DNA of 43,021 nucleotides from Anaerolineae bacterium (lineage in GTDB: Bacteria > Chloroflexota > Anaerolineae > JACIWR01): assembly GCA_014360845.1 (NCBI GenBank), contig JACIWR010000003.1, forward strand, positions 1 through 43,021. Direction: 5' to 3'. Shown here piece after piece: positions 11,701-38,182 of the stretch (the stretch's first letter is position 1; each line of letters begins with the position of its first letter). Made by a program: the position numbers and the translations under genes. The notes beneath the pieces are model-generated. The model did not search any database. It worked only from the letters and a program-made list of their open reading frames with translations, and was not told where the DNA came from.

Positions 11701-12188
11701 ATACCGGTGAACACGGCCTCGGCCACAGCATTGTAAAGGGTATTGCTCTTCCACAAGGCGACATCGCGGTCCACCCGCTCCGTGACGTCCTCGATCACGG
11801 TGATGGTGCCGATGATGCGCCCATCCTCAACCAGCGGAGCAATGCGTGCGCTCTGAGCCATCAGCTTCCGGTCGGCGCTGAAATCCGAGGACATCGGCAG
11901 AAGATAGCGATGGAAGAGTTGCGACAACACCCGCACCTGCCCCTTCAGGGCATCGCGATAATAGCGGTCCAACCCACGGCTGACGAGCTCCGGGTATACC
12001 TCCAGCAAATTGCGCCCCACGACCTCGCTCGCCCGGTAGCCCGTGTGGACCTCCAGCCAGCGATTCCAGCCGCGGATGTTCAGCTCGGCATCCGTAATCA
12101 GCAAACCCTGGTCAGCAAAATCGTTCAACCATCGCAGTGTTGCTGTTGCGTAATCCGTCATAGCCCTTACCTCTACCATCCTGTTCAT
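5730..12188 (-). CDS. Hybrid sensor histidine kinase with 5 PAS, 5 GAF, HisKA, HATPase_c, 2 receiver and Hpt domains.
   Basis: 2152 aa. PAS modules each end in a DITERK(Q/R)AEEAL-like junction. GAF modules end in ENARL(F/Y)EE. H-box is [15 protein letters not shown]-box is [21 protein letters not shown]. Receivers are [21 protein letters not shown] and [22 protein letters not shown]. Hpt motif is [14 protein letters not shown]. The ATG overlaps the CheC stop (ATGA). Confidence 0.95.
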
Positions 12189-23037: not shown

Positions 23038-23088
23038 GAAGGCAATGGGGAACGAGGTAACGGGTAAAGGGTGATGAGGAGTGAGAAG

Positions 23089-23739
23089 ATGGGTAAACAC
23101 TGGGAAATCAGTCGCACCGGCCCATTGGGCGTGTTCCTGGCGCTGCTGGGCTATTGGGGGGCCTGGGTAGACCATAAGACCGCGGCGTTGGTGCTCAGCG
23201 GCCTGGACATGGGGGAGTACGTCAAGTTTCTACCGGAGGTGCGCGAGGGGAGCGTGGTCGTGCTGCGAGAGCTTTTCTACCTGCCGCCGCTGGCCGCGGC
23301 GCTCTGCCTGGCTCTACTGGTCGGCTGGCTGTGGCCACGATATTCGCTCACAGCGCGCGTGCTCATGCTGGGCCTGGCCGCGGGGCTCTGTCTCATCGTC
23401 CTGCCCCCTTACCCCTTCGTGCTGCACGCTCTCTCCTCAGCGGAGTTCCGGGGGCAGTTCATCATGTCCGTGTTGTGCTTATTGGGCGTTGCCGCGGCTC
23501 CACTCTACCGCCGCCTGAGGGACCGGACGGCCCAATTGCTGCTGGCGATGCTCGCCGGCCTGGGCACGCTCCCCGCTATAGCCCAGTTCTGCGCCATCCG
23601 CCCGGCCCTGGAGCGGGCTTACGGCTGGCCGTTGCAAATCGGCTGGGGCCTGTGGGTGATGGTGGTGGGCTTTGCTTTCGTCATCGTCGCCACCATAAAG
23701 GGTGAGGTGCGACGCACTTCAGAAGCGCGTCGCACCTAA
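23089..23739 (+). CDS. Polytopic membrane protein of unknown function.
   Basis: About 6 hydrophobic helices. The ATG at 23089 is preceded by AGGAG. It sits where ABC ATPase genes would be expected. Its 3' end overlaps the convergent hdrA stop by 4 nt. Confidence 0.55.
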   Translation: MGKHWEISRTGPLGVFLALLGYWGAWVDHKTAALVLSGLDMGEYVKFLPEVREGSVVVLRELFYLPPLAAALCLALLVGWLWPRYSLTARVLMLGLAAGLCLIVLPPYPFVLHALSSAEFRGQFIMSVLCLLGVAAAPLYRRLRDRTAQLLLAMLAGLGTLPAIAQFCAIRPALERAYGWPLQIGWGLWVMVVGFAFVIVATIKGEVRRTSEARRT

Positions 23740-26309
23740 ATCAGCACCCGCACGCTACTGCTACGACAGGCGGCGCACATCCGCTCTTCGTTTCTCGCCT
23801 TTTCCGCGCTGTAGTCCTCCCGCCATTCGTGCCCGCAGCGCATACAGCGCAAGAGAGCCGGCGTCGGCTCTTTCAGCTTCCAGACCTGGCTGCTGACCGG
23901 GACTTTCGCCTCTCTCAGCACCTCCATCGTCCGTGCCACTTCCTCGGCGGTGACATGCGCGCGCAGTTCCTCCACCGCGCGCATAATTTGAGCCCAGCGC
24001 TGACCCTCGGCAGCGGAGCACCACTCCAGTTGCAGGCGCTCCGGGCGCAGGCCGTGCTTCTCCAAGCCCTCCCACAGAGCATCCACGCGGCGCACGGTGT
24101 TGCGGTTAGCGTTGATGTAGTGGCAATCGGCGTAGTGGCAGCCGCTGACCAGCACCACCGGCGCGCCCTGGCGGAAGGCATACCACACGAAATCGGCAGC
24201 GACCCGCCCCGAGCACATCGTCCTGATGATGCGCGCGTTAGGCGGGTATTCCATGCGGCCCGTGCCCGCCGTATCGGCCCCGGCGTAGGAGCACCAGTTG
24301 CAGGCAAAGGTGACAATGGTGCTCAGCGGATCGCGCTCCAGGGCAGCATCAATCTGGGCGAAGATGGCCTGATCGCTGAAATGGCGCATTTCGATGGCGT
24401 CAAAGGGGCACTCGGCGGCACAGGTGCCGCAGCCGGCGCAGGCGGCGGTGATGACCTGCGCCACCTGTTTCTTCTCCCACTTGATGGCCGAGTAAGGACA
24501 CACCTCGGCACAGCGCCCGCACTGCCTGCACTTAGCCTCGTCCACCACAGCGGTGATGGCCTCGACCTGGATTTTGCTTCTGCTGAGCAACACCTCGGCC
24601 CGCGCCGCCGCTGCCGAAGCCTGGGTCACGCTGTCTTTCACGTCCTTGGGACTTTCGGCACATCCGGCCAGGAAAACGCCTTTGGTCGTCGCGTCCACCG
24701 GTTTGAGCTTGGGGTGCGCCTCCATGAAGAAACCTTCGGGCGTGCGCGACAGGGTGAGCAATTGCTTAACCAGTTCACTATCGCCGCGCGGGATAGCCCC
24801 GATGGACAGCACCAGCATGTCCAGTTCGTACTCCTCGATGCGCCCCGCCGTGGTGTTCTCCACGAAAACCCTGAGATTGCGCGTCTGCGGGTCCTCCACC
24901 ACCTCGCCGGGCAGGCCACGCACGTAACGCACGCCCGCCGCCTTGCTGCGCATGAACAGGTCCTCGAAGCCCTTGCCAAAGGCACGGATGTCCATGTAGA
25001 ACACCGTGATGTCAGTATCGGGGTAGTGGTCCTTGAGCAGCAAGCTATCTTTGATGGTGTTCATACAACAGATGTTGGAGCAGTAGGGATTGCCCCGCGC
25101 CGGATTGCTCGTCCGCGAGCCGACGCATTGCACAAACCCGATGCGTTGGGGAGTCTGACCGTCGGTCAGGCGGACGAAGTGTCCGCCGGTGGGGCCACCG
25201 GCGCTGATCAGCCGCTCGAACTCCAGGCTGGTGATCACGTTCTCGAAGCGGGTGTAACCGTACTCGTCCAGGGCGGTGGGGTCGTACACGTCCATGCCGG
25301 TGGCGACGATGATGGCCCCCACGTTCAACTCCACGATTTCATCCTGCATGTCGAAGTCAATGCACTTTTTGTCGCAGACCTCGATGCACTTCCCACAGGC
25401 GATGGGGTTATCGCCCAGGCAGGCTTCGATGTCCACCACATAAGCCGAGGGCACCGCCTGGGGAAAGGGGATGTAAATAGCGCGGCGCGTGCTCAACCCC
25501 TGCTGGAACTCGTCCGGGCGGACGATGGGGCAGACCTTGACGCACTCGCCGCAGGCCGTGCATTCCTTCTCATCCACGTAACGCGCCTTCTTGCGCACCC
25601 GCACCCGGAAGTTGCCCACGTAGCCGGATACGTCCTCGACCTCGCTGTAGGCCAGCAGTTCAATGTTGGGATGCCGACCGGCATCCATCATCTTGGGGCC
25701 GAGGATTCATATGCTACAGTCCATGGTGGGATAGGTCTTATCCAGCATGGCCATGATGCCACCGATGGAGGGTTGCTTCTCCACCAGGTACACCTGATGC
25801 CCGGCGTCGGCCAGGTCCAGCGCGGCCTGGATGCCCGCCACCCCGCCGCCGATGACCAGCGCCGCGTCAGTGACGGGCAACTGCTCCTCGTCCTGGGGAT
25901 ACAGCCAGTGCGCCCGGGCCACGGCCACGCGCACGATGTCCTGTGCCTTGCGGGTGGCCGCTTTCCTGTCGTGCAGCGTGACCCAGGAGCAGTGCTCTCT
26001 GATGTTGGCCATCTCCAGCAGGTACGGGTTCAGCCCCACTTGCTGGACGCAAGCGCGGAAGGTCGGCTCGTGCAGGCGCGGCGAGCAGGAAGCGATGACC
26101 ACGCGGTTGAGGTTGTGCTCCACGATCGCCCGCCTGATCTCGGCCTGGCCCGGATCGGAGCAGGTGTACTTGTTGCGCACGGCGACGGCCACATCGGGCA
26201 GGGTGGCCGCGTAGTCCTTCACTGCCTCAGTATCCACGCTGCCGGCGATGTTCAGCCCGCAGTCGCAGACGAAAACGCCGATTCGCAGATCATCTTTCAC
26301 CAAAATCAT
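23736..26309 (-). CDS. hdrA: HdrA-like flavoprotein fused to an MvhD domain and a C-terminal zinc ribbon. One gene with an in-frame UGA (25707-25709), read as selenocysteine.
   Basis: ORFs 25707..26309 and 23736..25691 are in the same frame (618 nt apart). The junction reads [36 protein letters not shown], matching the HdrA motif DKTFPT.DCS.C-IL.PKM..HPNI. The N-terminus [37 protein letters not shown] is HdrA-type. The MvhD part reads [27 protein letters not shown]. The tail reads CMRCGH..CAACR. The ATG at 26309 is preceded by GAGGAGG. Confidence 0.85.
25669..25686 (-). promoter_or_regulatory. Candidate bacterial SECIS hairpin downstream of the in-frame UGA.
   Basis: The mRNA forms GGAUGCC-GGUC-GGCAUCC (7-bp perfect stem). 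The stem starts 20 nt after the UGA. The apical loop GGUC lies at +31 to +34 from the U of the UGA. Confidence 0.6.
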
Positions 26310-26337
26310 GCCTCCTCAAGCCAGTCGAATTTTCCCA

Positions 26338-26405
26338 CCGCAGAGCGCGCAGAGAGTGCGGAGAGTCAAAAAGTATTCTCTCGGCGGTCTCCGCGCTCTC
26401 GGCGG
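26338..26405. repeat. Imperfect GC-rich inverted repeat (REP-like) in the divergent intergenic region upstream of hdrA.
   Basis: Arms are ccgcagagcgcgcagagagtgcggagag and ctctcggcggtctccgcgctctcggcgg, separated by tcaaaaagtatt. Confidence 0.6.
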
Positions 26406-26740
26406 TAAAACAAACAAGACTAAGCGAGCAAGCTCACTGCCACATTGCGACAAACCATTCCGCCGATCAGCGAAATCTATTAGGTAAGACGATGAGCAGG
26501 TGGGCGTGTTTAAACGTCCTACATTTAGGAGACACTACAGCCTGATTTCCCCCACGACGAGTAGACACTCTTACGAGAAGAAACCAGATTCCCAGCAGTT
26601 CCCAATTTGCCGCGACGTTATAGCGGCAAAACAGATTCATCGAGAAAGATCCCAACAAGGAGGTGATTGTATGACCATTTGATCCATTTGAGCTAGGAAC
26701 AGACCCTCGAATCAGTTTGGTAAAGGGAAGGAGGAAACAG

Positions 26741-27289
26741 ATGCGAAACAAAATAATATTCTGGGTGACCTTGGGGGTCATCGCTCTGCTGATTCTCAGT
26801 TCTACCCCAGTCATGGCCGGTGGCCCACAGCCCACAGCAGAGGTAGAGACGAATGTATATGACCCACCCATTCCAGTTGACGCCAATGCTCCGGAATACC
26901 CCAGCGTGACACCAGGTCAAGACGCGGCCATCAACAAAGAAGCAAACTTCACAACCCGAGCAAGTCTGCTCCACGCATGGGATTCAACAATTCTCAAGGC
27001 CAGCGCGAATGAGGTGCTCCTTGACGGGTGGTCGGACGCAGGTCTCGGCAACAATATGGATGTCATCGAGGTCAAAATGTGGTTATGGAAATGGAACTTC
27101 GGGACAAGCGAATGGGAACTGCATTCTGACTACCGGAAAGCCGAGAGTAACAAGGATCTGGTACAGTTGACAGTGAGACCCTGGGTCGGCGCTGGTACAT
27201 GGACAGTGACTAGTCGGCACTATGCTCGCAAGGGGCTGAGCATTGACATCCAATACGACACCAATAATAACATCGTGACCACCCCATAG
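26741..27289 (+). CDS. Secreted protein of unknown function.
   Basis: The ATG at 26741 is preceded by GGAAGGAGGAAACAG. Signal peptide is MRNKIIFWVTLGVIALLILSSTPVMA. GC content looks lower than in the flanking genes. Confidence 0.6.
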   Translation: MRNKIIFWVTLGVIALLILSSTPVMAGGPQPTAEVETNVYDPPIPVDANAPEYPSVTPGQDAAINKEANFTTRASLLHAWDSTILKASANEVLLDGWSDAGLGNNMDVIEVKMWLWKWNFGTSEWELHSDYRKAESNKDLVQLTVRPWVGAGTWTVTSRHYARKGLSIDIQYDTNNNIVTTP

Positions 27290-27311
27290 CGAGCGAGAGT
27301 TCGAAAGCCAA

Positions 27312-27347
27312 CCCCGGGAGGACAATCAACCCTCCTGGGGTTCTTTG
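27312..27347 (+). terminator. Rho-independent terminator between convergent genes.
   Basis: Stem ccccgggagg / cctcctgggg (one G-U pair), loop acaatcaac, followed by ttctttg. Confidence 0.7.
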
Positions 27348-27364
27348 TGCTTCCCTGAGAGCTA

Positions 27365-28201
27365 TTATTCCAACGACCGAGCCACTTTCAGCAATTCTTC
27401 CAGAGAGTAAGGGCCGGACAGGAAGAAAGTCACGCCATCCTCCTGCCATAGAAGATTGGTCAACACAAAATCCCCTTCACCCCACGGCCCTGGCCCGCTA
27501 TAACCCGACTCAGCCCACTCAGCCACCACTCCAGGTTTCAACTCCACAGTCCGCGTGTCCTGGGGTATAGATTCTCTTGGTGCTCCCCATACGCACCTGT
27601 AAGCATCCAAAAGGAAGAGAGGAGAAGAACCCGTCTCTGTCTCTAGCAGTTTCAGGTCTGAAGCCCCTGTAGCTTGCACGAGATAGCTGACGATCACGAG
27701 ATTCCGCCCATCTTCCGTTTGCACGACCTGGAAGACTTGCTGCACCGGCTGCTGTACGCCAGCAACATCCTTCCACTCCTCTATCCCTGGTGGCAGATAA
27801 GCAGGCACGCGAATTGGAAAACTCACTCTCGCTTGAGCTTGCTCCCTTGAGAGCAGAGGAGCCGGCATGGGCGCTTCCCCTTCGAAAACGACAACGGGAC
27901 GGGAGGTCAAGCCCGTTGCCCCAATGCGGGCCACTATCTCCCACAGCTCCCGGGCTGCTTGGACGCCTACCGTGCCAGCGAAGGTCAGGACGAATATCAT
28001 CAGCATGGTCGCTACAACCTGTATGGAGTAGTGCAAACTACCCCATCGAAAGGCGACCCTGCGTAATAGCGAAGTCTCCCACCGCTCTGCGGACATCTCC
28101 ATTCGTTCCAGTCGGGTCAGAAACGCACGAGATGGGTTGATACTCCTCCAATAACGAGGAATATCTCGCCGAAGTATTCCCTCGAAATCATCAGTCATCA
28201 T
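27365..28201 (-). CDS. Membrane-anchored anti-sigma factor candidate with a DUF4367-like C-terminus.
   Basis: It lies directly downstream of the ECF sigma gene. It has a single TM helix (VVATMLMIFVLTFAGTVGV). The C-terminus reads LLWQEDGVTFFLSGPYSLEELLKVARSLE. The ATG at 28201 is preceded by AAGGAGG. The listed start is 28255. Confidence 0.6.
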   Translation of the reverse strand: MMTDDFEGILRRDIPRYWRSINPSRAFLTRLERMEMSAERWETSLLRRVAFRWGSLHYSIQVVATMLMIFVLTFAGTVGVQAARELWEIVARIGATGLTSRPVVVFEGEAPMPAPLLSREQAQARVSFPIRVPAYLPPGIEEWKDVAGVQQPVQQVFQVVQTEDGRNLVIVSYLVQATGASDLKLLETETGSSPLFLLDAYRCVWGAPRESIPQDTRTVELKPGVVAEWAESGYSGPGPWGEGDFVLTNLLWQEDGVTFFLSGPYSLEELLKVARSLE

Positions 28202-28268
28202 CTCTCGTCCCTCCTTGCTTTCGCAATCGTGTATAGGTAGTACCACCTTCACCATTGCCCTTTTCCTG

Positions 28269-28799
28269 CTACTTTTCCTTCAGATACTCCCGTAACATCT
28301 GACGAGCCTCGCTCAACATACGCCGCACAGTCCCCGCTGGTCGGTCCAGGGAACGAGCAATTTCGCCAGTGTTATAACCTTCTCCATAGTAGAGTAAGAT
28401 CACCAGGCGGTACACACACGGCAAACTACCAATGGCTTCATACAGGTCAGAAAAACGCTCCCGCTCCGCGAGGGATTCCATATTCTCTGCCATCTGGCTC
28501 ACGAGCTCACGGTCACGCTTGCGTTTCCGAAGCAGATCACGAGCGCGGTTAACAACAATGCTATTCAACCAAAACTCAAAAGATGTCCTCTTTTTCAATC
28601 CGCGCAGGGAACGATAGGCAGCAATAAAAGCTTCCTGTACAACATCTTCTGCATCAGCGTGATTGCCTAATAGAGCGAACGCGATGCGGTACAGCCGCGT
28701 GCTGTGCTCACGCACGAGGGTAGCGAAGGCTATTCTGTCCCCATCTTGCGCCCGGGTAATGAGAACGATCTCCTCTGTTGCGGTCAACTCGTTATCCAC
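28269..28799 (-). CDS. ECF-type RNA polymerase sigma-70 family factor.
   Basis: Region 2 reads RLYRIAFALLGNHADAEDVVQEAFIAAYRSL. Region 4 helix-turn-helix reads YNTGEIARSLDRPAGTVRRMLSEARQML. Confidence 0.9.
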   Translation of the reverse strand: MDNELTATEEIVLITRAQDGDRIAFATLVREHSTRLYRIAFALLGNHADAEDVVQEAFIAAYRSLRGLKKRTSFEFWLNSIVVNRARDLLRKRKRDRELVSQMAENMESLAERERFSDLYEAIGSLPCVYRLVILLYYGEGYNTGEIARSLDRPAGTVRRMLSEARQMLREYLKEK

Positions 28800-28993
28800 C
28801 TGCTTGAATCACACGTGTTCAATGTAATCTATCGGACATCCGGTCTACTATAAAGACGAACGGCTAGGGCTTCTTGCTCACCCGCCCTATTCCAAATAGA
28901 TTGAGCCTTCGATGCCGTCTGTATAGTCTTCGGGATATTTTTCTTGCTTGGGCGACCCCGGTGCGTTAGGGAAATGTGGTCATTCTTCAGCTA

Positions 28994-30121
28994 TCAATCG
29001 AGCGGGGTAGCGTACAACCTGATCTCGTCACCCACCACCTGGCCGCACCATGTCCCGCCGGCCAGCGCTCCCACCGGCAGATGGAAAAAGTCCAGCGGGT
29101 AGCACAGCCCTTCGCCCAGGCGGAAGCCATTGTCTTTGCTGGTGATCAAGCGCTCATCGGGCACGCCGGGGAAGTCCGGTCCGGCTGCCTCGCCCTGCAC
29201 CCAGCCCACACCGGGTAGGTAGACCTCGACCCAGACGTGCATGCCCAGGTTCTGCCCAAACCAACTGGCCAGCGGCTCGAAGTGGGGCGGACGCGGCTCG
29301 CCGATGCGCGCCGGGCGCAATCCCGCTATCACCCGCGCTGGAATCCCCGCCGCCCGGCAGAGGGCGACGAAGACCTTGCTCTGACCGTTGCAGTCGCCCA
29401 ACCCCTCCTGAATGCAGCCTAGCGTGTCCGAGGGATAGGGGTCGCCCAGCCTGGGATAGATGATGTGCTCCTCCACCCACTGCTGGATGAGCAAGACTTT
29501 CCGCCACGGGTTGGTCTCATCCCCGACGATGGATTCGGCCAGAGCGCGTACCTCTTCGCGGTCCGAGGGGATGACCGCGTTGGGCGCGGTGTAGGTCTGG
29601 TACAACTCGCTCGTCTCGTCGTAGTCCCCTATCTGCTCCGCATCAATCGTGTACACCGCCGGGGCCACGCTGACCTCGAACTCCACGCCGAAGATGCAAT
29701 CGCCAGACTGGCAGAGGGCAGGCACTTCCGCCCAATGCACCACCTGATTGCCGGCCCGGTCCAAAAGCTCGTACCCGTCCGGGTAAGCGCGCAGGAACTC
29801 GACATCGAGGGTGCCCTGCCCATCCCAATCGCGGGGCACGGGCAGCCACAGGTGATCCACCATCCTATCCTTGCGGTAGACCGTTGGCCGCTCGATCTCG
29901 TAACGCATGCGGTAGCGGCGGGTGGGCACCGGCGTTGGGGTGGGCGTGCTGGTCGGTGTTGGGGTCGCCGTCGGGGTGGGTGTGGGGGTATAAGTCGCTG
30001 TCGCCGTGGGCGATGGGGTCGCCGATGGAGTAGGCGAAGGCGACGGTGTAGGCGTCGGGCTCGATAGTGCCGGCGCGCAGCCGCTGATCAAAAGCAACAG
30101 AATACACAACCACTTTCTCAT
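28994..30121 (-). CDS. Lipoprotein with a PT-rich linker and a transglutaminase-like cysteine protease core.
   Basis: Lipobox [10 protein letters not shown]. About 45 aa of PT repeats. Core motifs [23 protein letters not shown] and [14 protein letters not shown]. The ATG at 30121 is preceded by GGAAGAGGA. The listed start at 30139 is TTG. Confidence 0.75.
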
Positions 30122-30151
30122 GAGTTCCTCTTCCCTCAACCTCCCGCAGGT

Positions 30152-30997
30152 TCAGAACCCGCGGGAGGTTCGTTGCGCCAGCCAATCCCGCATGAAGGCC
30201 AGGACCTGGTCCTTTTCTGGCTCGTTAAAAATCTCGTGGTACAGGCCATCCCACAGTTTGAGCGTTTTGTCCTGGGACGAGATGGACTCGTACAGCTCGC
30301 GGCTGGCGGCGGGATCGGCCAGCTTATCCTCGGTGCCGTGCATGATGAGCACCGGACAGGTGATCGCGTGTGCGTCGCGCAGCACCTGGCGGGCGGTTCT
30401 GAGCATTTCCACGCAGACACAGGCGGGCACCTGTCCCCGGTAATTCAGCGGGTCGCTGTCGTAGCAGGCCACGACTTCGGGGTCACGGGAGATAGCTGTC
30501 GCTGCCAGGCGCGTCACTCCCATGCCGGGGAACAGGCGGGCAACAACCCCGCTCAGCGCCTGCAACAGCGGTGACACGCCCTCGCTGGGTCTAAACCAGG
30601 GACCGGATAACACCAGTCCATCCACCCGATCAGGATGCTGGATGGTGTAGGCCGTCGCTAACAGGCCTCCCATGCTGTGACCGACGAGAAAAAGAGGCCC
30701 CACTCCCCCGATGGCGCGAACCACGGTGACGAACTTGTCCAGGTCGTCCACCAGAAACTGGAAGCGCTCGAAGTACCCCCGCCGGCCCGCCGATTCGCCG
30801 TGGCCCCGATGATCGAGGGCGTACACGACGTAGCCCTGGCCGACGAAGTAGTCCGCCACGTGGGTGTAGCGACCGCTATGCTCGGCGTATCCGTGGGCCA
30901 CCACCAACACGGCACGGGGATCACCCTCCGGCTCCCATCCTCGATAGTAGATAATAGAATCGTTAAACCCTGTGAAAATACCTTCAATATCGCTCAT
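30152..30997 (-). CDS. Alpha/beta hydrolase, monoacylglycerol lipase/lysophospholipase-like.
   Basis: Motifs HGYAEHSGRY, the nucleophile elbow GHSMGG, and HGTEDKL..YHEIFNE. Confidence 0.8.
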   Translation of the reverse strand: MSDIEGIFTGFNDSIIYYRGWEPEGDPRAVLVVAHGYAEHSGRYTHVADYFVGQGYVVYALDHRGHGESAGRRGYFERFQFLVDDLDKFVTVVRAIGGVGPLFLVGHSMGGLLATAYTIQHPDRVDGLVLSGPWFRPSEGVSPLLQALSGVVARLFPGMGVTRLAATAISRDPEVVACYDSDPLNYRGQVPACVCVEMLRTARQVLRDAHAITCPVLIMHGTEDKLADPAASRELYESISSQDKTLKLWDGLYHEIFNEPEKDQVLAFMRDWLAQRTSRGF

Positions 30998-31053: not shown

Positions 31054-32229
31054 CTACTCCAGGGCATTCGCCACCAGGGTAATCAGGTCGCGCACTGGCA
31101 TTTCAATCTCCGCGCCCAACCTGGGATCGTCCATGGCGCACAAGAAATGAATCTGGCACTTGGCGCAGGCCGTGACCAGCATCTCGGCGCCGGTGGCCCG
31201 TGCCTCCCGCAGGCGTTCCACCTGGATAGCCTTGCTCGTCGCGCCGCAGTTCGTCCATCCGCTGGTGCCGCAACAAGTGGAGGTTTTGCCCGCGTGTGCC
31301 ATCTCCACTATCTCGATGCCCAGGGCCCGCAGAAGCTGGCGTGGGGCATCGTACACGTGCATGTAGCGTCCCAGCCGGCATGGGTCCTGGTAGGTGGCGG
31401 ATGGTGAATGGTGGGTGGCAGATGGCGGATGGCGGGTGGCAGATAGCAGATGGCGAATGGCGGATAGCAGGTCACTGGCGGACAGTAACTCGGCGATGTG
31501 CAGCACTTCCATGCCGGTATTGCCCACGAAGGCCGGGTAGTCCACTTTGAGGGTGTAGGCACATTCCGGACAGGAGGTGACGATGCGTCGGGCTCCGGTG
31601 CTCCGCAGCAGTTCCAGGTTCAGTTCGGCCAGGTGGCGGAAGGTGTTCACGTCGCCTTGCCACAGCAAGTCGTGACCGCAGCAGCGTTCGTCGGCCAGGA
31701 CGGCGGGTACGATGTCCAGCGCGTTGAGCACGCGCACCGCAGCGCGGGCGATGTCCACGCCCTGGAAGCCCTGTCGGCGGAAAAGCACGTCATAATACGG
31801 CAGACAACCCACCCAGTACACCGTATCCGAGGTAGGTGAGACCTGCAGGTCCCCCATCAACCAGTCCAGCCGGTTCTGCTTCAGCGCCGGATCGGCCATC
31901 ATGCGCATCCAGGTGTGGATGGTATCGCCGTGAGTGCACGCGCCCTGGTGGCCGATCTCGCGAGCCAGGATGCGCAGCTCGCGAGTGAACTCGGAGTAGT
32001 GCACATCCGAGGGGCAGATTTCGCTGCACCGTCGGCAGGTGAGGCAGGCCCAGGCCAAAGGGCTTTCCAGGACAGCATGAGCACGTCCGGCAACCACCTC
32101 TTCCACAATCCGGCGCGGCGAAAACCCGCTGTCCTGTCGCGCCACGGGACACGTCGCCGTGCATTTACCGCATTCCAGGCAATAGTAAGCCCGGTGGCGG
32201 GTGATTGTTTGTTTGATAGGGTCTGGCAA
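31054..32229 (-). CDS. HdrD-like Fe-S oxidoreductase: a fused HdrC-type 2x[4Fe-4S] domain plus two HdrB-type CCG domains.
   Basis: Motifs CLECGKCTATCPV, CLTCRRCSEICPS, CCGHDL, YQDPCRLGRY and CCGTSGW. I place the start at TTG 32229, which lies 8 nt after AGGAG and 11 nt after the mvhD stop. The listed ORF start at 32535 would overlap all of mvhD. Confidence 0.75.
   Translation of the reverse strand: MPDPIKQTITRHRAYYCLECGKCTATCPVARQDSGFSPRRIVEEVVAGRAHAVLESPLAWACLTCRRCSEICPSDVHYSEFTRELRILAREIGHQGACTHGDTIHTWMRMMADPALKQNRLDWLMGDLQVSPTSDTVYWVGCLPYYDVLFRRQGFQGVDIARAAVRVLNALDIVPAVLADERCCGHDLLWQGDVNTFRHLAELNLELLRSTGARRIVTSCPECAYTLKVDYPAFVGNTGMEVLHIAELLSASDLLSAIRHLLSATRHPPSATHHSPSATYQDPCRLGRYMHVYDAPRQLLRALGIEIVEMAHAGKTSTCCGTSGWTNCGATSKAIQVERLREARATGAEMLVTACAKCQIHFLCAMDDPRLGAEIEMPVRDLITLVANALE
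31389..31472. repeat. 12 tandem heptamers (consensus GGCRGAT on the plus strand) inside the hdrD-like coding sequence.
   Basis: Units read ggtaggt ggcggat ggtgaat ggtgggt ggcagat ggcggat ggcgggt ggcagat agcagat ggcgaat ggcggat agcaggt. That is 84 nt or 28 codons, and it encodes LLSAIRHLLSATRHPPSATHHSPSAT. Confidence 0.85.
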
Positions 32230-32240
32230 TGTGCGATCTC

Positions 32241-32657
32241 CTAATGGGATGGCGGAAGAGTGGAAGGTTGGAAGGAGCACAACTGCTCGATGAACGCTGT
32301 CACTTTCTCCACAAAGGCGTGCCCATCGCCGACATCCAGCCAATCCAGGCGCAATCGCTCCTCGGCGATACCCAGCAAATGCGCCAGCGCCCGTGCCTCG
32401 GCAAAGACTTCTTCCGCGTGGCGGTTTCCGAAGCCGTAGTGACATTCGCCCGGCGGGCAACCCAGCAGAAGCACGCTGTCGGCCCCCTGCTCGAATGCCT
32501 TGAGGATCAGCCCCGGATGCAGGCGGCCCAGACACATCACCTTGACCGCATACACGCCGGCCGGATAGCTCAAACCCTCGACGCCCGCCGCCTCCAAACT
32601 GCTATACGCATTCCAGTTACAGGTGAACACAATAACCCGTGTTTCCGTTTTTTCCAT
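32241..32657 (-). CDS. mvhD: MvhD-like protein (methyl-viologen-reducing hydrogenase delta-subunit family [2Fe-2S] protein).
   Basis: Reads VIVFTCNWNAYSSLEAAG..VKVMCLGRLHP..LLLGCPPGECHYGFGN. The ATG at 32657 is preceded by GGAAGGTG. The last ~8 codons lie in octamer repeats at 32252-32275. Confidence 0.8.
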   Translation of the reverse strand: MEKTETRVIVFTCNWNAYSSLEAAGVEGLSYPAGVYAVKVMCLGRLHPGLILKAFEQGADSVLLLGCPPGECHYGFGNRHAEEVFAEARALAHLLGIAEERLRLDWLDVGDGHAFVEKVTAFIEQLCSFQPSTLPPSH

Positions 32658-32712
32658 CACCTTCCGTCCTCGGGTCGCCCGCGCAGATGAAACCCAGCAA
32701 TCAGGCCTTATC

Positions 32713-33333
32713 TCAGTCGTCAAAGCAAGTCAGCATTACCACCGTATAGTCGTCGTTTACGCTGAACGCCAGCATAACGTTGGCACGTTCCTCTTCACGC
32801 ACAAAATCTAAAACAACGGCGGGGCCCCCGAACAAACCTGCCTCACTATACTGACGCTTATACAACTGCCAGCCCAGTACTGCCATTTGTTCCTGGTAAT
32901 AAGCCTCTACGTCTTCCACCATAGCCTCAACCGCATAAACATAGCTGAAGCCAGCAGGCCGCCCCTCGATAGCCCCCGGCATGACAGGCAATCCTTCCCA
33001 TGAGGGCACAGGCGTTCCCATGGTATCTGATTGACCGCTTACAGTAGACGTAGGCTCTGGCAGTGTGGCGGTCGGGGCTATTACCGATGGCGTCGGAGTG
33101 TCCACCGGCAATTGAGTCGCGGTGGGGAGTGGTGTCGCAGTAGGAAGGGGTGTCGTGGTGGGGAGTGGTGTCACGGTAGGAAGCGGTGTTTTAGTGGATT
33201 CTGGTGTTGCGGTAGGTGTTGATGTCTCAATTGCCGTCGTCGCGGTGGTGATAGACGATACCTGGAAAGATGAATCACAGGACGACAACACAATAACGCA
33301 AAAAATCATCACGGCAAACAAGCCTCGCTGCAT
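32713..33333 (-). CDS. Lipoprotein with a PT-rich linker and a small C-terminal domain of unknown function.
   Basis: Lipobox VIVLSSCDSS. The linker is TPTATPESTKTPLPTVTPLPTTTPLPTATPLPTAT. It is embedded between the hdrL-like gene and mvhD. Confidence 0.6.
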   Translation of the reverse strand: MQRGLFAVMIFCVIVLSSCDSSFQVSSITTATTAIETSTPTATPESTKTPLPTVTPLPTTTPLPTATPLPTATQLPVDTPTPSVIAPTATLPEPTSTVSGQSDTMGTPVPSWEGLPVMPGAIEGRPAGFSYVYAVEAMVEDVEAYYQEQMAVLGWQLYKRQYSEAGLFGGPAVVLDFVREEERANVMLAFSVNDDYTVVMLTCFDD

Positions 33334-33430
33334 TGGATGTCCTCCTTTAGCTAAGAGTCCCTCAATTACTCATCCAAATAAGCGGTCACACATCAAACGC
33401 CCCCAAAATGCTATTCGTCCTCCCCGCTCC

Positions 33431-33480
33431 ATCCGTTCAATCCGTTCCATCCGCTTAATCCGCTGACTAATCCGCTGACA
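33431..33480. repeat. Tandem nonamer-type repeat (ATCCGYTYA) spanning the hdrL-like stop codon.
   Basis: The atccg motif recurs at 33431, 33440, 33449, 33458 and 33470. The last unit supplies the final codons (..LSAD) and sits beside the TAG at 33467-33469. Confidence 0.7.
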
Positions 33481-36400
33481 ATACCGCCTTTAGCATAGCC
33501 TCGATTTGTGCATCCGTCGAGTAACCGGCCACGATAGCGCCCGACGGGCAATGCGCCGCGCAGGTCCCGCACCCGGTACAGGCCGCCGCATTGACCACGG
33601 CATGCCACCCTCCTGCCGCCGTCTGCCGCACGGCGATGGCTCCGAACTCGCACAGCGATTCACAAGTGCCGCACGCCCGGCAGCGCACCGCCTCCACCTG
33701 GGCCACGTTGCCGTCCGCCCCCCGCCGGCTGCGCCCCAGCAGGGCCATCACCTGGGCCGCAACCGCCGCGCCGGACTTCTCCGTTTCCTGCTCTGGAGAA
33801 CAGACGAAGAGGCCCGGTCGTCGGCCCGCCAGCCCCCCTAGATCAAAAACCCGTTCCCAGGGCGCGAAATCGGTAGCGCTGGCGGGAGCAAGCACTATCA
33901 CCGCGGCGGACACGGTACGCGACGCGTCATTGTATCCCAGGGTCACGGTGTAATCGCCCAGGGAACCCCGCGCCTCGACTGGTTGACTCGCCTCGCGTAT
34001 CACAGCCACGCCCTGGCGAGCGAGAAGTCCGGCGCAGGTCTCGGCGGCCTGGCCCCGCCCCCACACCAGCACCGGCCCCGTCACAGGCTCTACCACTCGA
34101 CGGCGCGCATCCGGTTCCCGCAGCCTGGCAACCGCCGCCGCTATCAAGCGCCGCGCCTTGGCCGTGGCTCGCGCCGCATCGTCGGCGTGCACCCAGGCGC
34201 ACTGTTCACGGATGTTCACCAGCTCTATGCGTGCCGGGATTTGCTGGCCGCCGTCCGCCAACACCCCCAAATGCGTCCGGCATCGCACCCGCTGTGACGT
34301 GCACCCGTAGCAGACCTGATCCAGCGTACAGCACGAGCAGGCGGCCAGGACCACGCCGTCCAACCCGTGGACTCTCACCGCAGCGGCTATCGTCTCCGCC
34401 CCTTCTGCCTGGCAGGCAAAATCCAGAGGGGCAGCGTAGACCACGCCTGGCCAGTGAGTCGCCTGGGCCACCACCGTGGAGACGTCCACCACGTCGGCGA
34501 TCTCGCTCCCGCATTTGCAGACGAAGACCCCGATGCGGATGGCGAAGGGCGGATGGCGGATAGCAAGTGGCAGACGGCGAGTGGCGGATGGGGTGGGGAG
34601 GACCTCTAGAGCAACGCCCAAATCGGCCATGACCCGCGCGGCCACCGCCGAAGCGCCCACCACATCGTCAGCCGCCACGTGATACACGCGATCATCGCCG
34701 CCGGTCACCTGCCCCTCACCCACGAGGACAACCGCTCCCACGTCCAGAGTGGCCGTCTCCTCGCGCATGGCGTGGTCAATCGCCCGCGGCTGGCAGACCT
34801 TCTCGCAGGCCAGGCACTCGGCGCAAGGACCGCAGCTCAGACAGCGACTGGCCTCGGCCAAGGCCGTCGCCTCGTCGAAACCCAGCTCCACCTCCGCGTA
34901 CCCGCCAGTCCGCTCCGCCGGGGAGATGGTCGGCATGGGCTGGCGCGGTTTGGGCCCTTTCTCCTCCGGCAGCAGTTCGCGGCGGGCCACCGGCATCGGG
35001 GGCGCTTCCACCGCCAACTCGTCCGGCAATCTGAGGCCGCGCAGGAAAGCGTCCATGGCTCGCGCGGCCCGCTTCCCCTTGCCGATGGCGTCAATCACCG
35101 ACCAGGGCTGGCCGATGGCGTCGCCCGCGGCGAACACGCCCGGCTTGCCGGTCATGTAAGTCACCGGGTCCACAAGCAGATTGCCCTGGCGGGTGACACC
35201 GCACTCACCCAGCGCCTCGCCCAGAAAATCCAGGTCGGGCTGCTGACCGATGGCCGGCACCACCAAATCCACCTCCACGATGAACTCCGAACCGGCGATG
35301 GGCACCGGGCGGCGGCGACCGCTCTCGTCAGGTTCGCCCAATTCCATGCGCACGCACTCCAGCCCCACCACCTGCTCGCTTTCACCTATCACGCGGATGG
35401 GCTGAGTGAGAAATTCGATGGGAATCCCCTCCCGCTCGGCGTCCTCCACCTCGTCGGGGATGGCCGGCATCTCGTCCCGCGAGCGACGATAGAGAACGCG
35501 CACATCGCGCACGCCCTGGCGCAGCAGACAGCGGGCCACATCTATGGCCGTGTTTCCCCCGCCGATAACCGCTGCCCGTCGCACGTGAGGGGGTAAGAGC
35601 TGCCGCAACCGCTCCGGCCACTCCGAATCCGGCAATTGCTGCGCCAGATTGATCGTCCGCAGCAACTCGATCCCCTGCACCACGCCCGGCAGCTCCTCAC
35701 CGGGGATGACCAGATTCCGCGGGCGGTGTGCACCGACGCCCAGGAACACCGCATCGTACTTATCCAGCAAATCATCCACGCTGAGGTCGCCGTCCGGCCC
35801 GATGCGCGTATTGCAGCGTATCTCCACGCCCATCTCCTGGAGGCGCGCCACCTCGCGGCGGATCACCTCTCGGGGCAGCCGATAGGCCGGAATGCCCACA
35901 GCCATCATCCCGCCAACCACCGGCAGCGCCTCGAAGACCGTCACCGCATGCCCGCGCCTGACCAGTTCGTAGGCCACGGTGAGGCCAGAGGGACCGGAGC
36001 CGACGATGGCGACGTGTTTTCCAGTGGAAGGGCGGAAGGGCGGAGGGTTGGAAGGGTGGAAGGGTGGAAGGGTGCAGTCGGCGACGAAGCGCTTCAGGTT
36101 GCGTATGCTCAGCGCCTGGTCCACCTCCGCGCGGCGGCAGTTGGTCTCGCAGGGATGGTGACACACACGGCCCAGGATGCCAGGGAAGGGCACCGCCTCG
36201 TAAATCAAATCCAGGGCCTCGCGATAGCGTCCAGCAGCGATGAGGGCCACGTAGCCCTGTACGTGGATGCCGCCCGGGCAGGCGTCGGTACAGGGGGCGC
36301 GGCCCTGCCTGTCAATCACATAGATATTGGGCACCGAGACACCGGGCAGCTTGTGGATGGCAGTATGTCCCTGGCCCGGCACCACCACCGGGCAGACTTC

Positions 36401-36757
36401 CTCACAATCGCCGCAGGCCGTGCAGCGCTGTGCGTCCACAAAGCGGGGCCAGGAGCGAACCTCAGCGCGCAGGTCGGCCCCCTCCCCCGCCAGGCGAGTG
36501 AGGGTGGTATTCGTCCACACGGTGATACGCGGATGCTTCACCGCCTCCAACCGTAGGCCGGGTTGGTAACTCGTCTTACGGTTCCCGCCGAGAAAAGGCG
36601 AAGGTTCAACTAAATGAACCTGCAACCCGGCGTCCGCCAAATCCAGAGCAGCGCGGAGCCCCGCCGCATCGCTGCCCAGGATCAACACCTCTCGCGCCAA
36701 CCCTCTCCTCCTATCCGCCACCCACCAACCGCCGCCCGTATTCGTACCCCAGCTCAA
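33467..36757 (-). CDS. HdrL-like giant flavo-Fe-S fusion. Order: truncated HdrA-type FAD domain, ferredoxin, GltD/NfnB-type NAD(P)H:FAD module, Fe-S domain, HdrA N-terminal-type domain, 2x[4Fe-4S] ferredoxin.
   Basis: Motifs in order: [21 protein letters not shown]; CTACGDCEEVCP; GILGRVCHHPCETNCRR; HVAIVGSGPSGLTVAYEL..GGMM.GIP.YRLP; AAVIGGGNTAIDVAR; VFAAGDA; CLSCGPCAECLACEKVC; IGVFVCKCGSEIADVVD..VNIREQCAWVH; CRACGTCESLCE..CTGCGTCAAHCP. An alternative start is TTG 36700, which is 6 nt after AGGAGG and 10 nt after the korG stop. Confidence 0.8.
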   Translation of the reverse strand: MSWGTNTGGGWWVADRRRGLAREVLILGSDAAGLRAALDLADAGLQVHLVEPSPFLGGNRKTSYQPGLRLEAVKHPRITVWTNTTLTRLAGEGADLRAEVRSWPRFVDAQRCTACGDCEEVCPVVVPGQGHTAIHKLPGVSVPNIYVIDRQGRAPCTDACPGGIHVQGYVALIAAGRYREALDLIYEAVPFPGILGRVCHHPCETNCRRAEVDQALSIRNLKRFVADCTLPPFHPSNPPPFRPSTGKHVAIVGSGPSGLTVAYELVRRGHAVTVFEALPVVGGMMAVGIPAYRLPREVIRREVARLQEMGVEIRCNTRIGPDGDLSVDDLLDKYDAVFLGVGAHRPRNLVIPGEELPGVVQGIELLRTINLAQQLPDSEWPERLRQLLPPHVRRAAVIGGGNTAIDVARCLLRQGVRDVRVLYRRSRDEMPAIPDEVEDAEREGIPIEFLTQPIRVIGESEQVVGLECVRMELGEPDESGRRRPVPIAGSEFIVEVDLVVPAIGQQPDLDFLGEALGECGVTRQGNLLVDPVTYMTGKPGVFAAGDAIGQPWSVIDAIGKGKRAARAMDAFLRGLRLPDELAVEAPPMPVARRELLPEEKGPKPRQPMPTISPAERTGGYAEVELGFDEATALAEASRCLSCGPCAECLACEKVCQPRAIDHAMREETATLDVGAVVLVGEGQVTGGDDRVYHVAADDVVGASAVAARVMADLGVALEVLPTPSATRRLPLAIRHPPFAIRIGVFVCKCGSEIADVVDVSTVVAQATHWPGVVYAAPLDFACQAEGAETIAAAVRVHGLDGVVLAACSCCTLDQVCYGCTSQRVRCRTHLGVLADGGQQIPARIELVNIREQCAWVHADDAARATAKARRLIAAAVARLREPDARRRVVEPVTGPVLVWGRGQAAETCAGLLARQGVAVIREASQPVEARGSLGDYTVTLGYNDASRTVSAAVIVLAPASATDFAPWERVFDLGGLAGRRPGLFVCSPEQETEKSGAAVAAQVMALLGRSRRGADGNVAQVEAVRCRACGTCESLCEFGAIAVRQTAAGGWHAVVNAAACTGCGTCAAHCPSGAIVAGYSTDAQIEAMLKAVLSAD
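34534..34596. repeat. 9 tandem heptamers of the GGCGGAT family in frame inside the hdrL-like gene.
   Basis: Units read tgcggat ggcgaag ggcggat ggcggat agcaagt ggcagac ggcgagt ggcggat ggggtgg. That is 63 nt or 21 codons. It encodes PTPSATRRLPLAIRHPPFAIR immediately before IGVFVCKCG. Confidence 0.8.
36024..36071. repeat. 6 tandem octamers (GYGGAAGG) in frame inside the hdrL-like gene.
   Basis: Units read gtggaagg gcggaagg gcggaggg ttggaagg gtggaagg gtggaagg. That is 48 nt or 16 codons. It encodes TLPPFHPSNPPPFRPS just before the Rossmann motif GKHVAIVGSGPSG. Confidence 0.85.
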
Positions 36758-37265
36758 AAGCGCGACTGTTGAGCTCCTCCGTGCCCTTAGGCACCGACTC
36801 CAGCACGGCCCGGCGCAAGGCCTCCACCGAGACCACGTCGGTCACGGCGGCGAAGAAACCCAGCATCACCACGTTGGCCACAATCCTGCGCCCCAGCTCC
36901 TCCTCGGCCAGACGAGTGGCAGGAATGGAGAGAACACGCAGACCCGCCGCTTCCTCCCCCAGCTCAACCAGGTCCTCATCTACGAGCAGAACCCCCTCGC
37001 GGTTGAAATCGGGCACGTACTTGCTGTAAGCCCCCTGGGACATCACCACCAGAATGCGCGGGTCCAGAAGATGGGGGTAGTGGATGGGTTCATCGGAGAT
37101 GATAACCTGCGCCGCACAGGCTCCGCCTCGCGATTCCGGCCCGTAGCTCTGGGTGAAAGTGGCGTACTTGCCATCGTGAATGGCCGCCGCCATGCCAACT
37201 ATCTCCCCGCTACGTATGATTCCCTGCCCACCGAAGCCGGCTATACGCACCTCGATTCTGCTCAT
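36711..37265 (-). CDS. korC: 2-oxoacid:ferredoxin oxidoreductase gamma subunit.
   Basis: Starts MSRIEVRIAGFGGQGIIRSGEI, followed by SYGPESRGG. 184 aa. GGAG lies 7 nt upstream of the ATG. The last codons and the stop lie in three heptamer units at 36713-36733. Confidence 0.85.
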   Translation of the reverse strand: MSRIEVRIAGFGGQGIIRSGEIVGMAAAIHDGKYATFTQSYGPESRGGACAAQVIISDEPIHYPHLLDPRILVVMSQGAYSKYVPDFNREGVLLVDEDLVELGEEAAGLRVLSIPATRLAEEELGRRIVANVVMLGFFAAVTDVVSVEALRRAVLESVPKGTEELNSRAFELGYEYGRRLVGGG

Positions 37266-37283
37266 TTCTATGCTCCACTCATC

Positions 37284-37340
37284 AGGTGACAGTCACTTCC
37301 AAAGTGACTGTCACCTGGCTGTCACCTGGCTGTCACCTGG
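37284..37340. repeat. 14-bp perfect hairpin whose right arm is the first of three perfect 11-nt tandem repeats (CTGTCACCTGG).
   Basis: The hairpin is aggtgacagtcact-tccaa-agtgactgtcacct (37284-37316). The ctgtcacctgg copies lie at 37308, 37319 and 37330. The korB stop (37322-37324) is inside copy 2. Confidence 0.85.
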
Positions 37341-38182
37341 CAATCCAGGAACGTCGGCTTCTCGATGTCTATGAACTTGCCCTCGACAATCTCTCCGCCC
37401 AGTTCTATATCCACGCTCTTTGGATCCGCACCATGGCGGATGACACCTTTTTCGTGATAGTACTTCAACGTATCAAGCCCCGTGCGCTGCTTATGTCGCC
37501 GCCCGAAGTTAGTGGGACAAGGGGAGATCACCTCCACAAAGCTGAATCCGCGCTTGGCCAACGCCTCGCCTATGGCTCGCTCCAGGCGGCGCACGTGAAG
37601 CACCGTCCACCGCGCCACGTATACCGCCCCGCTGGCCACCGCCAGATACGGCAGGTTGAAGGGGTGCTCGTAGTTGCCGTAAGGGGTAGTGGTGGTAATG
37701 CTCCCCACCGGCGTCGTGGCCCCGTGTTGACCGCCGGTCATCCCGTAATTGAAATTATTGACGCAGATGACCGTCATGTCTATGTTGCGCCGCGCGGCAT
37801 GGATGAAGTGATTGCCGCCGATAGTCACCAGATCACCATCACCGGAGAAGACCACCACCTTCAGCTCCGGATTGGCCAGCTTGAGCCCCGTGGCGAAGGG
37901 TATCGCCCGCCCGTGCGTGGTGTGGAATGAATCCAGTTGCACGTAGCCCGCCACCCGCCCCGTGCAACCGATGCCGCTGACCACGACCACCTTGTCCAGG
38001 TCCAAACCCGATTTCAGCAGAGCACTGATGAAACAGGTCAGCGCCGTGCCAATCCCGCAGCCCGAACACCAGATGTGCGGCAGCCGCTCCTCACGCAGCA
38101 GAGCATCCATCGGGTGGCGTTCCGGCGAGACGGCCCCCGGTTCCACCGAATTCACCTCCATGTGACCCGTCAGCTCGCTCAT
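37322..38182 (-). CDS. korB: 2-oxoacid:ferredoxin oxidoreductase beta subunit (TPP-binding).
   Basis: Motifs WCSGCGIG, SGIGC and GDGD.. IGGNHFIHAARRNIDMTVICVNN. The internal ATG at 38182 overlaps the korA stop (ATGA). The listed N-terminal extension is G/A/R-rich and lies inside korA. Confidence 0.85.
   Translation of the reverse strand: MSELTGHMEVNSVEPGAVSPERHPMDALLREERLPHIWCSGCGIGTALTCFISALLKSGLDLDKVVVVSGIGCTGRVAGYVQLDSFHTTHGRAIPFATGLKLANPELKVVVFSGDGDLVTIGGNHFIHAARRNIDMTVICVNNFNYGMTGGQHGATTPVGSITTTTPYGNYEHPFNLPYLAVASGAVYVARWTVLHVRRLERAIGEALAKRGFSFVEVISPCPTNFGRRHKQRTGLDTLKYYHEKGVIRHGADPKSVDIELGGEIVEGKFIDIEKPTFLDCQVTAR

Follow-up and report, generated by a model that had tools for sequence, protein, structure and literature searches.

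The hdrA2-mvhD gene and its in-frame TGA

We analysed a stretch of 43,021 nucleotides (contig JACIWR010000003.1 of assembly GCA_014360845.1, hereafter the window) from an Anaerolineae bacterium of the Chloroflexota, in which a gene for an HdrA-type flavoprotein is interrupted by an in-frame TGA codon. Two open reading frames (ORFs) on the minus strand, 25707..26309 (200 residues) and 23736..25691 (651 residues), share one frame with the TGA at 25709..25707 lying between them, just as an earlier sequence-only reading of this DNA had stated. Reading through 23736..26309 gives 857 codons with only this one internal stop, and at the junction the minus strand runs ACC ATG GAC TGT AGC ATA TGA ATC CTC GGC CCC AAG ATG ATG GAT GCC GGT CGG CAT CCC. 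The whole region is a single gene, whose product is an HdrA2-MvhD fusion flavoprotein of 857 residues. From the comparisons presented below, it is very likely a single gene that encodes selenocysteine (Sec) at the TGA and carries a functional bacterial selenocysteine insertion sequence (bSECIS). Its features are as follows.

23736..26309, minus strand: complete hdrA2-mvhD coding sequence, 857 codons, putative Sec at codon 201, stop codon TAG at 23738..23736
25707..25709, minus strand: in-frame UGA, proposed Sec codon, at the second position of the CxxU motif DCSIU, equivalent to Cys197/Sec197 of HdrA
25692..25706, minus strand: ILGPK, the five codons from the UGA to the first downstream ATG, translated only if the UGA is decoded
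25669..25686, minus strand: putative bacterial SECIS hairpin, with 5' arm 25686..25680, GGUC loop 25679..25676 and 3' arm 25675..25669
23967..24317, minus strand: fused MvhD (FlpD) domain, residues 665-781 (Pfam PF02662, E = 3.2e-44; MvhD chains in the PDB, E ~1e-37)
23766..23846, minus strand: C-terminal CxxC...CxxC zinc-ribbon-like tail, residues 822-848, as read from the sequence

A GTG at 26300 may be the real start instead, given its better spacing to a GAGGAGG Shine-Dalgarno sequence.

Protein identity and the residue encoded by the TGA

The sequence-only reading held that the two ORFs rebuild one HdrA-MvhD protein, and the merged translation bears this out. It alone passes the NCBIfam profile for HdrA2 (NF040770): the match covers positions 1-774 of the 777 in the profile and scores 1180.1 bits, above the cut-off of 1100. 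In a PDB search, residues 7-656 align end to end with HdrA from the crystallised Hdr-Mvh complex (5odc_A, E = 1.6e-248), and residues 664-784 match MvhD chains. A Pfam scan, for which Cys was put in place of the internal stop, finds a flavin adenine dinucleotide (FAD)/pyridine-nucleotide-disulfide oxidoreductase region beginning at residue 151, 4Fe-4S ferredoxin (Fer4) domains at residues 587-641 and, C-terminal to these HdrA domains on the same polypeptide, the MvhD/FlpD domain listed above. The Pyr_redox_2 match (residues 151-249) covers the TGA, so that a split at this point would halve the FAD-binding fold, as had been argued from the sequence.

Query residue 201, the TGA, corresponds to Cys197 of 5odc_A, within the motif DCSIC-IL, and 8rvu_a likewise has Cys in this column. 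According to published summaries of the Hdr-Mvh structure (PMC9012536), Cys197 in the TrxR-like domain of one HdrA protomer serves as a ligand to the N-terminal [4Fe-4S] cluster of the other. In a cryo-EM structure from 2026, the Methanococcus maripaludis complex has Sec197 at this position, modelled in a Cys-Sec bridge leading from cluster A3 to FAD (PMC13518236). Because the TGA aligns with both Cys197 of 5odc_A and Sec197 of M. maripaludis, it lies at the canonical Cys/Sec position of HdrA.

A protein database search returned 118 full-length relatives (about 805-865 residues, 64-70% identity), several of which, from Chloroflexota or Dehalococcoidia, are named "CoB-CoM heterodisulfide reductase HdrA2". 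All 118 have Cys in the TGA column. The alignment with these spanning homologs and with the PDB chains thus agrees with the proposal that the TGA replaces the second Cys of the HdrA motif, turning CxxC into CxxU.

Conservation of the TGA codon

Two nearer proteins, P0001 (93% identity) and P0107 (84%), are only 652-653 residues long and are truncated just as in the window. Their contigs (from a JGI metagenome and an ENA hydrothermal-vent assembly) have TGA at the same codon, with the N-terminal fragment called as its own gene just upstream. The resulting database entries, of 144 (cut) plus 653 and 198 plus 652 residues, are the kind of split that the sequence-only reading expected from standard gene callers.

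Scanning one genome for each GTDB species yielded 80 loci. Every orthologous copy in them (87 with paralogs counted) carries the TGA within the motif [DE]C[SA]I*ILGPK. With metagenome loci added, the nearest orthologs comprise 110 TGA-type copies. The stop is TGA in all 110 and never TAA or TAG, ILGPK follows in frame, and no homolog that is genuinely split at this position was found. A further 58 copies are Cys-type (TGC in 31, TGT in 27), and 56 of them are orthologs that form the Cys-type set used here. The closest locus to the window gene is that of Anaerolineae metagenome-assembled genome (MAG) AUK198, which is 93% identical. TGA-type genes occur in about 11 phyla, including Chloroflexota (Anaerolineae, Caldilineae, Thermoflexia, Ardenticatenales and Dehalococcoidia), Ignavibacteriaceae, Eisenbacteria, Neomarinimicrobiota, Acidobacteriota, Zixiibacteriota, Planctomycetota, Gemmatimonadota, Calditrichia, Glassbacteria and Desulfobacterota, the last including the isolate Desulfocarbo indianensis.

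A nonsense mutation, or a sequencing or assembly error, would require just one third-position change from the TGC or TGT of Cys-type homologs, and would make the gene a pseudogene or a misread one. However, the same TGA recurs in 110 of 110 independent ortholog assemblies across these phyla, purifying selection is evident on both sides of it, and the hairpin described below is conserved. We regard the probability of a mutation or error as negligible, and these sequence comparisons appear effectively to refute it.

The codons that follow the TGA are informative on how the region is translated. Among 104 distinct TGA-type sequences, the first and second positions of the ILGPK codons are invariant or nearly so, and the third positions vary with entropies of 0.97-1.87 bits. 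Such variation, at synonymous sites only, is the mark of a translated peptide under purifying selection. This bears on the possibility that HdrA is truly split here, into polypeptides of 200 and 651 residues that join post-translationally. Split and tandem HdrA genes are known in other organisms (PMC9012536, PMC1794560), and the ATG at 25691, only 15 nucleotides past the TGA, is accepted as a start by gene callers. Those 15 nucleotides, however, are the ones that encode ILGPK, and two separate proteins would cut the FAD domain matched at residues 151-249. Since the stop is always TGA, ILGPK varies only synonymously and no Shine-Dalgarno sequence precedes the ATG (GGCCCCAAG), the sequences argue for translation through the TGA, and we consider a true split extremely unlikely.

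Three further observations concern the two classes of gene. The base 3' of the UGA (25706 in the window) is A in 104 of 104 TGA-type sequences (Ile, ATH) and G in 49 of 49 Cys-type orthologs (Val, GTN). The Ile codon 5' of the site (25710..25712) is ATA in 97 of 104 and in 33 of 49, respectively. This difference in codon context may reflect an effect on Sec decoding or on termination. In addition, TGA-type Anaerolineae loci align with the window HdrA2 up to residue 857, the CxxC...CxxC tail included, and this tail is apparently missing from Cys-type homologs (about 805-822 residues, covering 93-95% of the query).

The hairpin downstream of the UGA

Starting 20 nucleotides past the UGA, the mRNA can form the hairpin GGAUGCC-GGUC-GGCAUCC (25686..25669). 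Its GGUC loop lies at +30 to +33 with the U of UGA taken as 0 (31-34 if counted from 1), and position, distance and loop spacing are all exactly those given by the sequence-only reading. That reading also considered the geometry to fit a bacterial SECIS, and the published bSECIS rules support this. They call for a loop of 3-9 nucleotides, an upper stem of 4-16 base pairs, a UGA-loop spacing of 16-37 nucleotides and a minimum free energy (MFE) of at most -7.5 kcal/mol, with a G in one of the first two loop positions (G, then G or U) (PMC13188914). The window hairpin has a loop of 4 nucleotides beginning with two Gs, a stem of 7 base pairs, 27 nucleotides from the A of UGA to the first loop base and an 18-mer MFE of -11.5 kcal/mol, and variants in relatives reach -9.4 and -8.8 kcal/mol.

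Folded by itself, the 18-mer is more stable than all of 200 shuffles (z = -3.42). The surrounding 60-nucleotide stretch folded alone is not significant (z = -1.70, with 10 of 200 shuffles as stable). Because the single-sequence fold of 60 nucleotides is unremarkable, the weight for the hairpin rests on comparative data. For these, 100 distinct TGA-type sequences were compared with 47-48 Cys-type orthologs, and site entropies were calculated for 104 distinct TGA-type sequences and 49 Cys-type orthologs.

The hairpin is present in 100 of 100 TGA-type sequences and in none of 47 Cys-type orthologs. All seven pairs form in 97 of the TGA-type sequences and six pairs in the other three, and the GGUC loop is invariant throughout. 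Paired cells amount to 99.6%, compared with 19-57% when the partners are slid by 1-3 columns. Mean 18-mer MFE is -9.7 kcal/mol in TGA-type and -4.2 kcal/mol in Cys-type genes. Four synonymous sites within the hairpin (+26 in GAT, +29 in GxC, +32 in GGT and +38 in CAT) have zero entropy in the TGA-type set, whereas the same sites have 1.20, 1.51, 1.79 and 0.99 bits in the Cys-type orthologs. Synonymous sites that flank the hairpin (+5 to +17 and +41 to +59) vary to the same extent in the two classes. The hairpin is under nucleotide-level selection in TGA-type genes.

Within the stem, pair 6 is the informative one. Among the 100 TGA-type sequences it is U-A in 60, C-G in 25 and U·G in 15, with no mismatches and never C·A, and its covariation score was reached by none of 500 shuffles. 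On a neighbour-joining tree of the protein sequence outside the hairpin, parsimony gives about 26 changes of state at this pair. The 5' change, from C to U, replaces Ala by Val, and the 3' change, from G to A, is silent (CGG to CGA). RNA pairing therefore ties the choice of an amino acid to a silent site.

Conservation of this kind could in principle have another cause. The hairpin might act as a translational pause, an attenuator or an mRNA stability element, or might simply be a by-product of the D(A/V)GRHP peptide, and the sequence rather than the structure could be what is conserved at the six pairs other than pair 6. But the DVGRHP peptide is present in 31 of 48 Cys-type genes, of which only 1 of the 48 forms all seven pairs. 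Since Cys-type genes with mostly the same peptide vary freely at synonymous sites, the constraint on the hairpin is not a protein effect. Position, loop and energy also match the bSECIS model exactly, and the choice of Ala or Val follows the Arg codon such that pairing is always kept. We therefore give a non-SECIS role or a by-product very little credence, and favour a bSECIS.

Paralogs show the same arrangement. At four loci a second hdrA lies about 5 kb upstream of the main copy (L054:5451, L057:5453, L058:5007 and L066:3564), with the same TGA and the same GGAUGYC-GGUC-GRCAUCC hairpin.

Selenocysteine machinery and the probable decoding of the UGA

In two Ignavibacteriaceae MAGs, L054 (14970..20608) and L057 (14982..20618), Sec genes follow directly after a TGA-type hdrA-hdrC-hdrB cluster. 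The block encodes a NifS-SelD fusion, SelB with EF-Tu domains as well as the SelB winged-helix and beta-barrel domains, SelA (E = 1.5e-128) and a tRNA-SeC with anticodon TCA. Because this block adjoins the hdrA cluster, a selenoprotein gene and the whole Sec machinery are co-located in these genomes. Across all loci, tblastn with SelA, SelB and SelD from L054 gave matches only in L054, L057, L078 (SelB) and L065 (SelD).

Several results weigh against Sec insertion through a bSECIS in the window gene. No tRNA, and so no tRNA-Sec, was found in the 43-kb window by ARAGORN, and the tblastn searches found no selA, selB or selD homologs in the window and no Sec-machinery genes in the flanks of the Chloroflexota loci examined. 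Rfam gave no SECIS or other relevant family, either on the whole window at the gathering threshold or on 25560..25800 at E <= 10. Of the seven stem pairs, six are invariant or show rare mismatches only, so that the structural covariation rests on one pair. Finally, the Sec/Cys division amounts to one switch on the tree of sampled sequences, which makes the association of TGA and hairpin a single evolutionary event with no replicates. The idea of using replicated Sec/Cys switches as independent tests of this association was dropped, as parsimony gave only the one, and the case was moved to constraint within the clade and to the changes at pair 6. The only Rfam match at E <= 10, to a snoRNA (E = 8.6), was taken as chance.

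The lack of Sec machinery in the window would suit a UGA that is read through without Sec, either by near-cognate tRNAs that insert Cys or Trp or because TGA has been reassigned, and low-level UGA read-through does occur in bacteria. But TGA ends 10 of 26 well-supported window genes (TAA ends 9 and TAG 7), which excludes genome-wide reassignment. A scan for further in-gene TGAs in the window found only out-of-frame shadow ORFs and true gene ends, and hdrA2 is the sole window gene with an internal TGA. Read-through of this sort would also leave unexplained a hairpin that follows the bSECIS rules and is under strict nucleotide-level selection in TGA-type genes only, and selA, selB, selD and tRNA-Sec lie beside the gene in relatives. 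We consider non-Sec read-through very unlikely. Sec-specific elongation factors and Sec-containing formate dehydrogenases have been reported from Anaerolineales single-cell genomes (PMC4959059).

If Sec is inserted, decoding would follow the bacterial Sec pathway. With the ribosome on the UGA at codon 201 (25709..25707), the GGUC apical loop of the hairpin 20 nucleotides downstream would recruit SelB·GTP·Sec-tRNA(Sec), leading to Sec insertion and continued translation past the UGA. The product would have CxxU (DCSIU) at the Cys197/Sec197 position in the TrxR-like FAD domain of HdrA. Judging by published structures, this residue could serve as a ligand to the N-terminal [4Fe-4S] cluster of the partner or form a Cys-Sec bridge from a cluster to the bifurcating FAD.

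Relation to known selenoproteins

In 2006 HdrA already figured among the selenoprotein families of bacteria; 16 members with Sec were known at the time, and multiple copies occurred in Syntrophobacter, Syntrophus, Moorella and others (PMC1794560). A 2026 review lists it as a CxxU selenoprotein (PMC13188914). The statement in the sequence-only reading that HdrA is a known selenoprotein family in both archaea and bacteria is therefore well documented. The window gene shares CxxU, with the putative Sec at Cys197/Sec197, with the Sec-HdrA and HdrA2 proteins of Methanococcales, Syntrophobacter fumaroxidans and Desulfobacterium autotrophicum (PMC13188914, PMC1794560, PMC2702500, PMC13518236). It also has in common with them an architecture of N-terminal Fe-S domain, TrxR-like FAD domain, and inserted and C-terminal ferredoxin domains, with MvhD fused as in HdrA2. 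On sequence grounds, it is a further member of this established family and agrees with it in every family feature that could be tested.

There are also differences. Unlike methanogen Sec-HdrA, the window gene belongs to an Anaerolineae (Chloroflexota) host, with no CoM/CoB metabolism, hydrogenase or hdrBC next to the gene. Its protein carries the extra C-terminal CxxC...CxxC tail, and its putative SECIS is of the bacterial in-frame type, not of the archaeal type in the 3' untranslated region.

The putative SECIS shares a small apical loop that starts with G-G/U, the spacing and the MFE with the bSECIS consensus of Zhang and Gladyshev, for which E. coli fdhF and fdnG are the prototypes. It differs in that its hairpin is short, pairs perfectly over 7 bp, has a GGUC tetraloop and lacks a bulged U. 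The review stresses that bSECIS elements from different families bear little mutual resemblance (PMC13188914), whereas the primary sequence of this element is almost invariant across about 11 phyla.

Operon context and possible function

Upstream of hdrA2, on the same strand, the window encodes in order a 2-oxoacid:ferredoxin oxidoreductase, an HdrL-like protein, a 206-residue unknown protein and an HdrD-like protein (31054..39336).

36711..39336, minus strand: 2-oxoacid:ferredoxin oxidoreductase subunits, upstream of the HdrL-like gene
33467..36757, minus strand: HdrL-like fusion, 1096 residues, with a GltD/NAD(P)-binding module and rearranged HdrA-like parts (Pfam, NCBIfam, BLASTP against HdrA2)
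31054..32535, minus strand: HdrD-like protein, 493 residues, with 4Fe-4S dicluster and CCG domains (Pfam CCG, E = 1.3e-27)

No hdrBC genes adjoin hdrA2 in the window. The HdrD-like CCG gene lies 5.3 kb upstream, with a block of about 4.7 kb in between, and its product is probably the disulfide-reducing partner of HdrA2. Synteny was compared at the 46 TGA-type loci whose upstream sequence reaches 8 kb or more. A CCG gene is found just upstream of hdrA2 in 40 of these, often 9-130 nucleotides off, an HdrL-like gene in 31 and POR gamma in 40, and all three occur together in 30.

From this synteny, we suspect that HdrA2-MvhD partners with the upstream-encoded HdrD-like CCG protein and the HdrL-like NAD(P)H-binding fusion, in what would be a ferredoxin-linked disulfide reductase that performs flavin-based electron bifurcation or confurcation. 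Within this soluble enzyme, which would be coupled to NAD(P)H as well as ferredoxin, HdrA2-MvhD would act as the flavin-bifurcating subunit. The CoM-S-S-CoB heterodisulfide is an unlikely substrate in a Chloroflexota bacterium.

The HdrL-like protein has an HdrA-type FAD-binding segment at residues 25-149, followed by the GltD module and an HdrA N-terminal Fe-S domain at 740-960. In the BLASTP alignment with HdrA2, a gap and no residue stands where Cys197 would align. This gap recalls the complementarity of Cys197 and the N-terminal domain that has been proposed for heterodimeric HdrA pairs (PMC9012536).

The closest described arrangement is that of Desulfobacterium autotrophicum, in which HdrL, HdrD and HdrA are combined with MvhD and several of these proteins are selenoproteins (PMC2702500). 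Locus VIII of strain HRM2, with tandem hdrL/hdrA4 followed by hdrD2, has its counterparts in the HdrL-like protein, the soluble HdrD-like CCG protein and the HdrA with MvhD of the window (PMC2702500). In contrast to the HRM2 loci, the window cluster is preceded by 2-oxoacid:ferredoxin oxidoreductase genes and interrupted by about 4.7 kb, and only its HdrA2 has a TGA.

Significance

The UGA and SECIS described here are textbook bacterial selenoprotein biology. Mildly notable are the nearly fixed primary sequence of the SECIS across about 11 phyla and the location of the gene within a widely conserved, uncharacterised operon. 

More tentatively, Sec-type hdrA2-mvhD with its near-invariant 18-nucleotide SECIS might be the signature subunit of a conserved and biochemically uncharacterised operon; we think this possible but rather doubtful. 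Such an operon may comprise 2-oxoacid:ferredoxin oxidoreductase, the HdrL-like NAD(P)H module, the HdrD-like CCG protein and HdrA2(Sec)/MvhD, and may extend across the same phyla. On this reading Sec197 appears obligatory in the TGA-type clade, given that no Cys variant was found among 100 distinct members, and the SECIS sequence itself, beyond its fold, also appears to be fixed there. Lateral spread of the gene together with its SECIS could account for this, as could an unusually strict interface between SelB and the RNA.

The main use of the finding is in annotation repair. Callers of the Prodigal type cut the gene into pieces of 200 and 651 residues, so that an intact bifurcation flavoprotein, along with the selenium dependence of the organism, may be overlooked or wrongly scored when the metabolism of Anaerolineae and many other anaerobes is reconstructed. 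The sequence GGAUGYCGGUCGRCAUCC, 20 nucleotides past a TGA, is a simple and specific marker with which such genes can be rescued. Sec-type and Cys-type orthologs also provide a clean natural contrast that could help in studying the role of Sec197 in HdrA, a question called unresolved in the 2026 structural paper.

Other features of the window

About 4.7 kb of unrelated genes (26310..30997) lie between the CCG gene and hdrA2. As most relatives are without this block, it looks like an insertion into the operon. It consists of the following.

30152..30997: alpha/beta hydrolase
28994..30139: transglutaminase-like protein
28269..28799: ECF sigma factor
27365..28255: unknown ORF of 296 residues
26310..27364: ORF-poor stretch of about 1 kb

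A scan for promoters and terminators around hdrA2-mvhD gave background level only. At the 3' end of the gene, a strong GC-rich palindrome (GGTGCGACGC...GCGTCGCACC, 23706..23736) starts at the hdrA2 stop codon and overlaps the 3' end of a convergent ORF, 23071..23739. From its sequence and position it may be a bidirectional terminator without a T-run, which the consensus scan missed.

Farther from the cluster, on the minus strand, 5730..12188 encodes a hybrid sensor kinase of 2152 residues with five PAS and five GAF domains, HisKA/HATPase, two receiver domains and one Hpt domain, and is followed by chemotaxis-like CheC/CheX and response-regulator genes.

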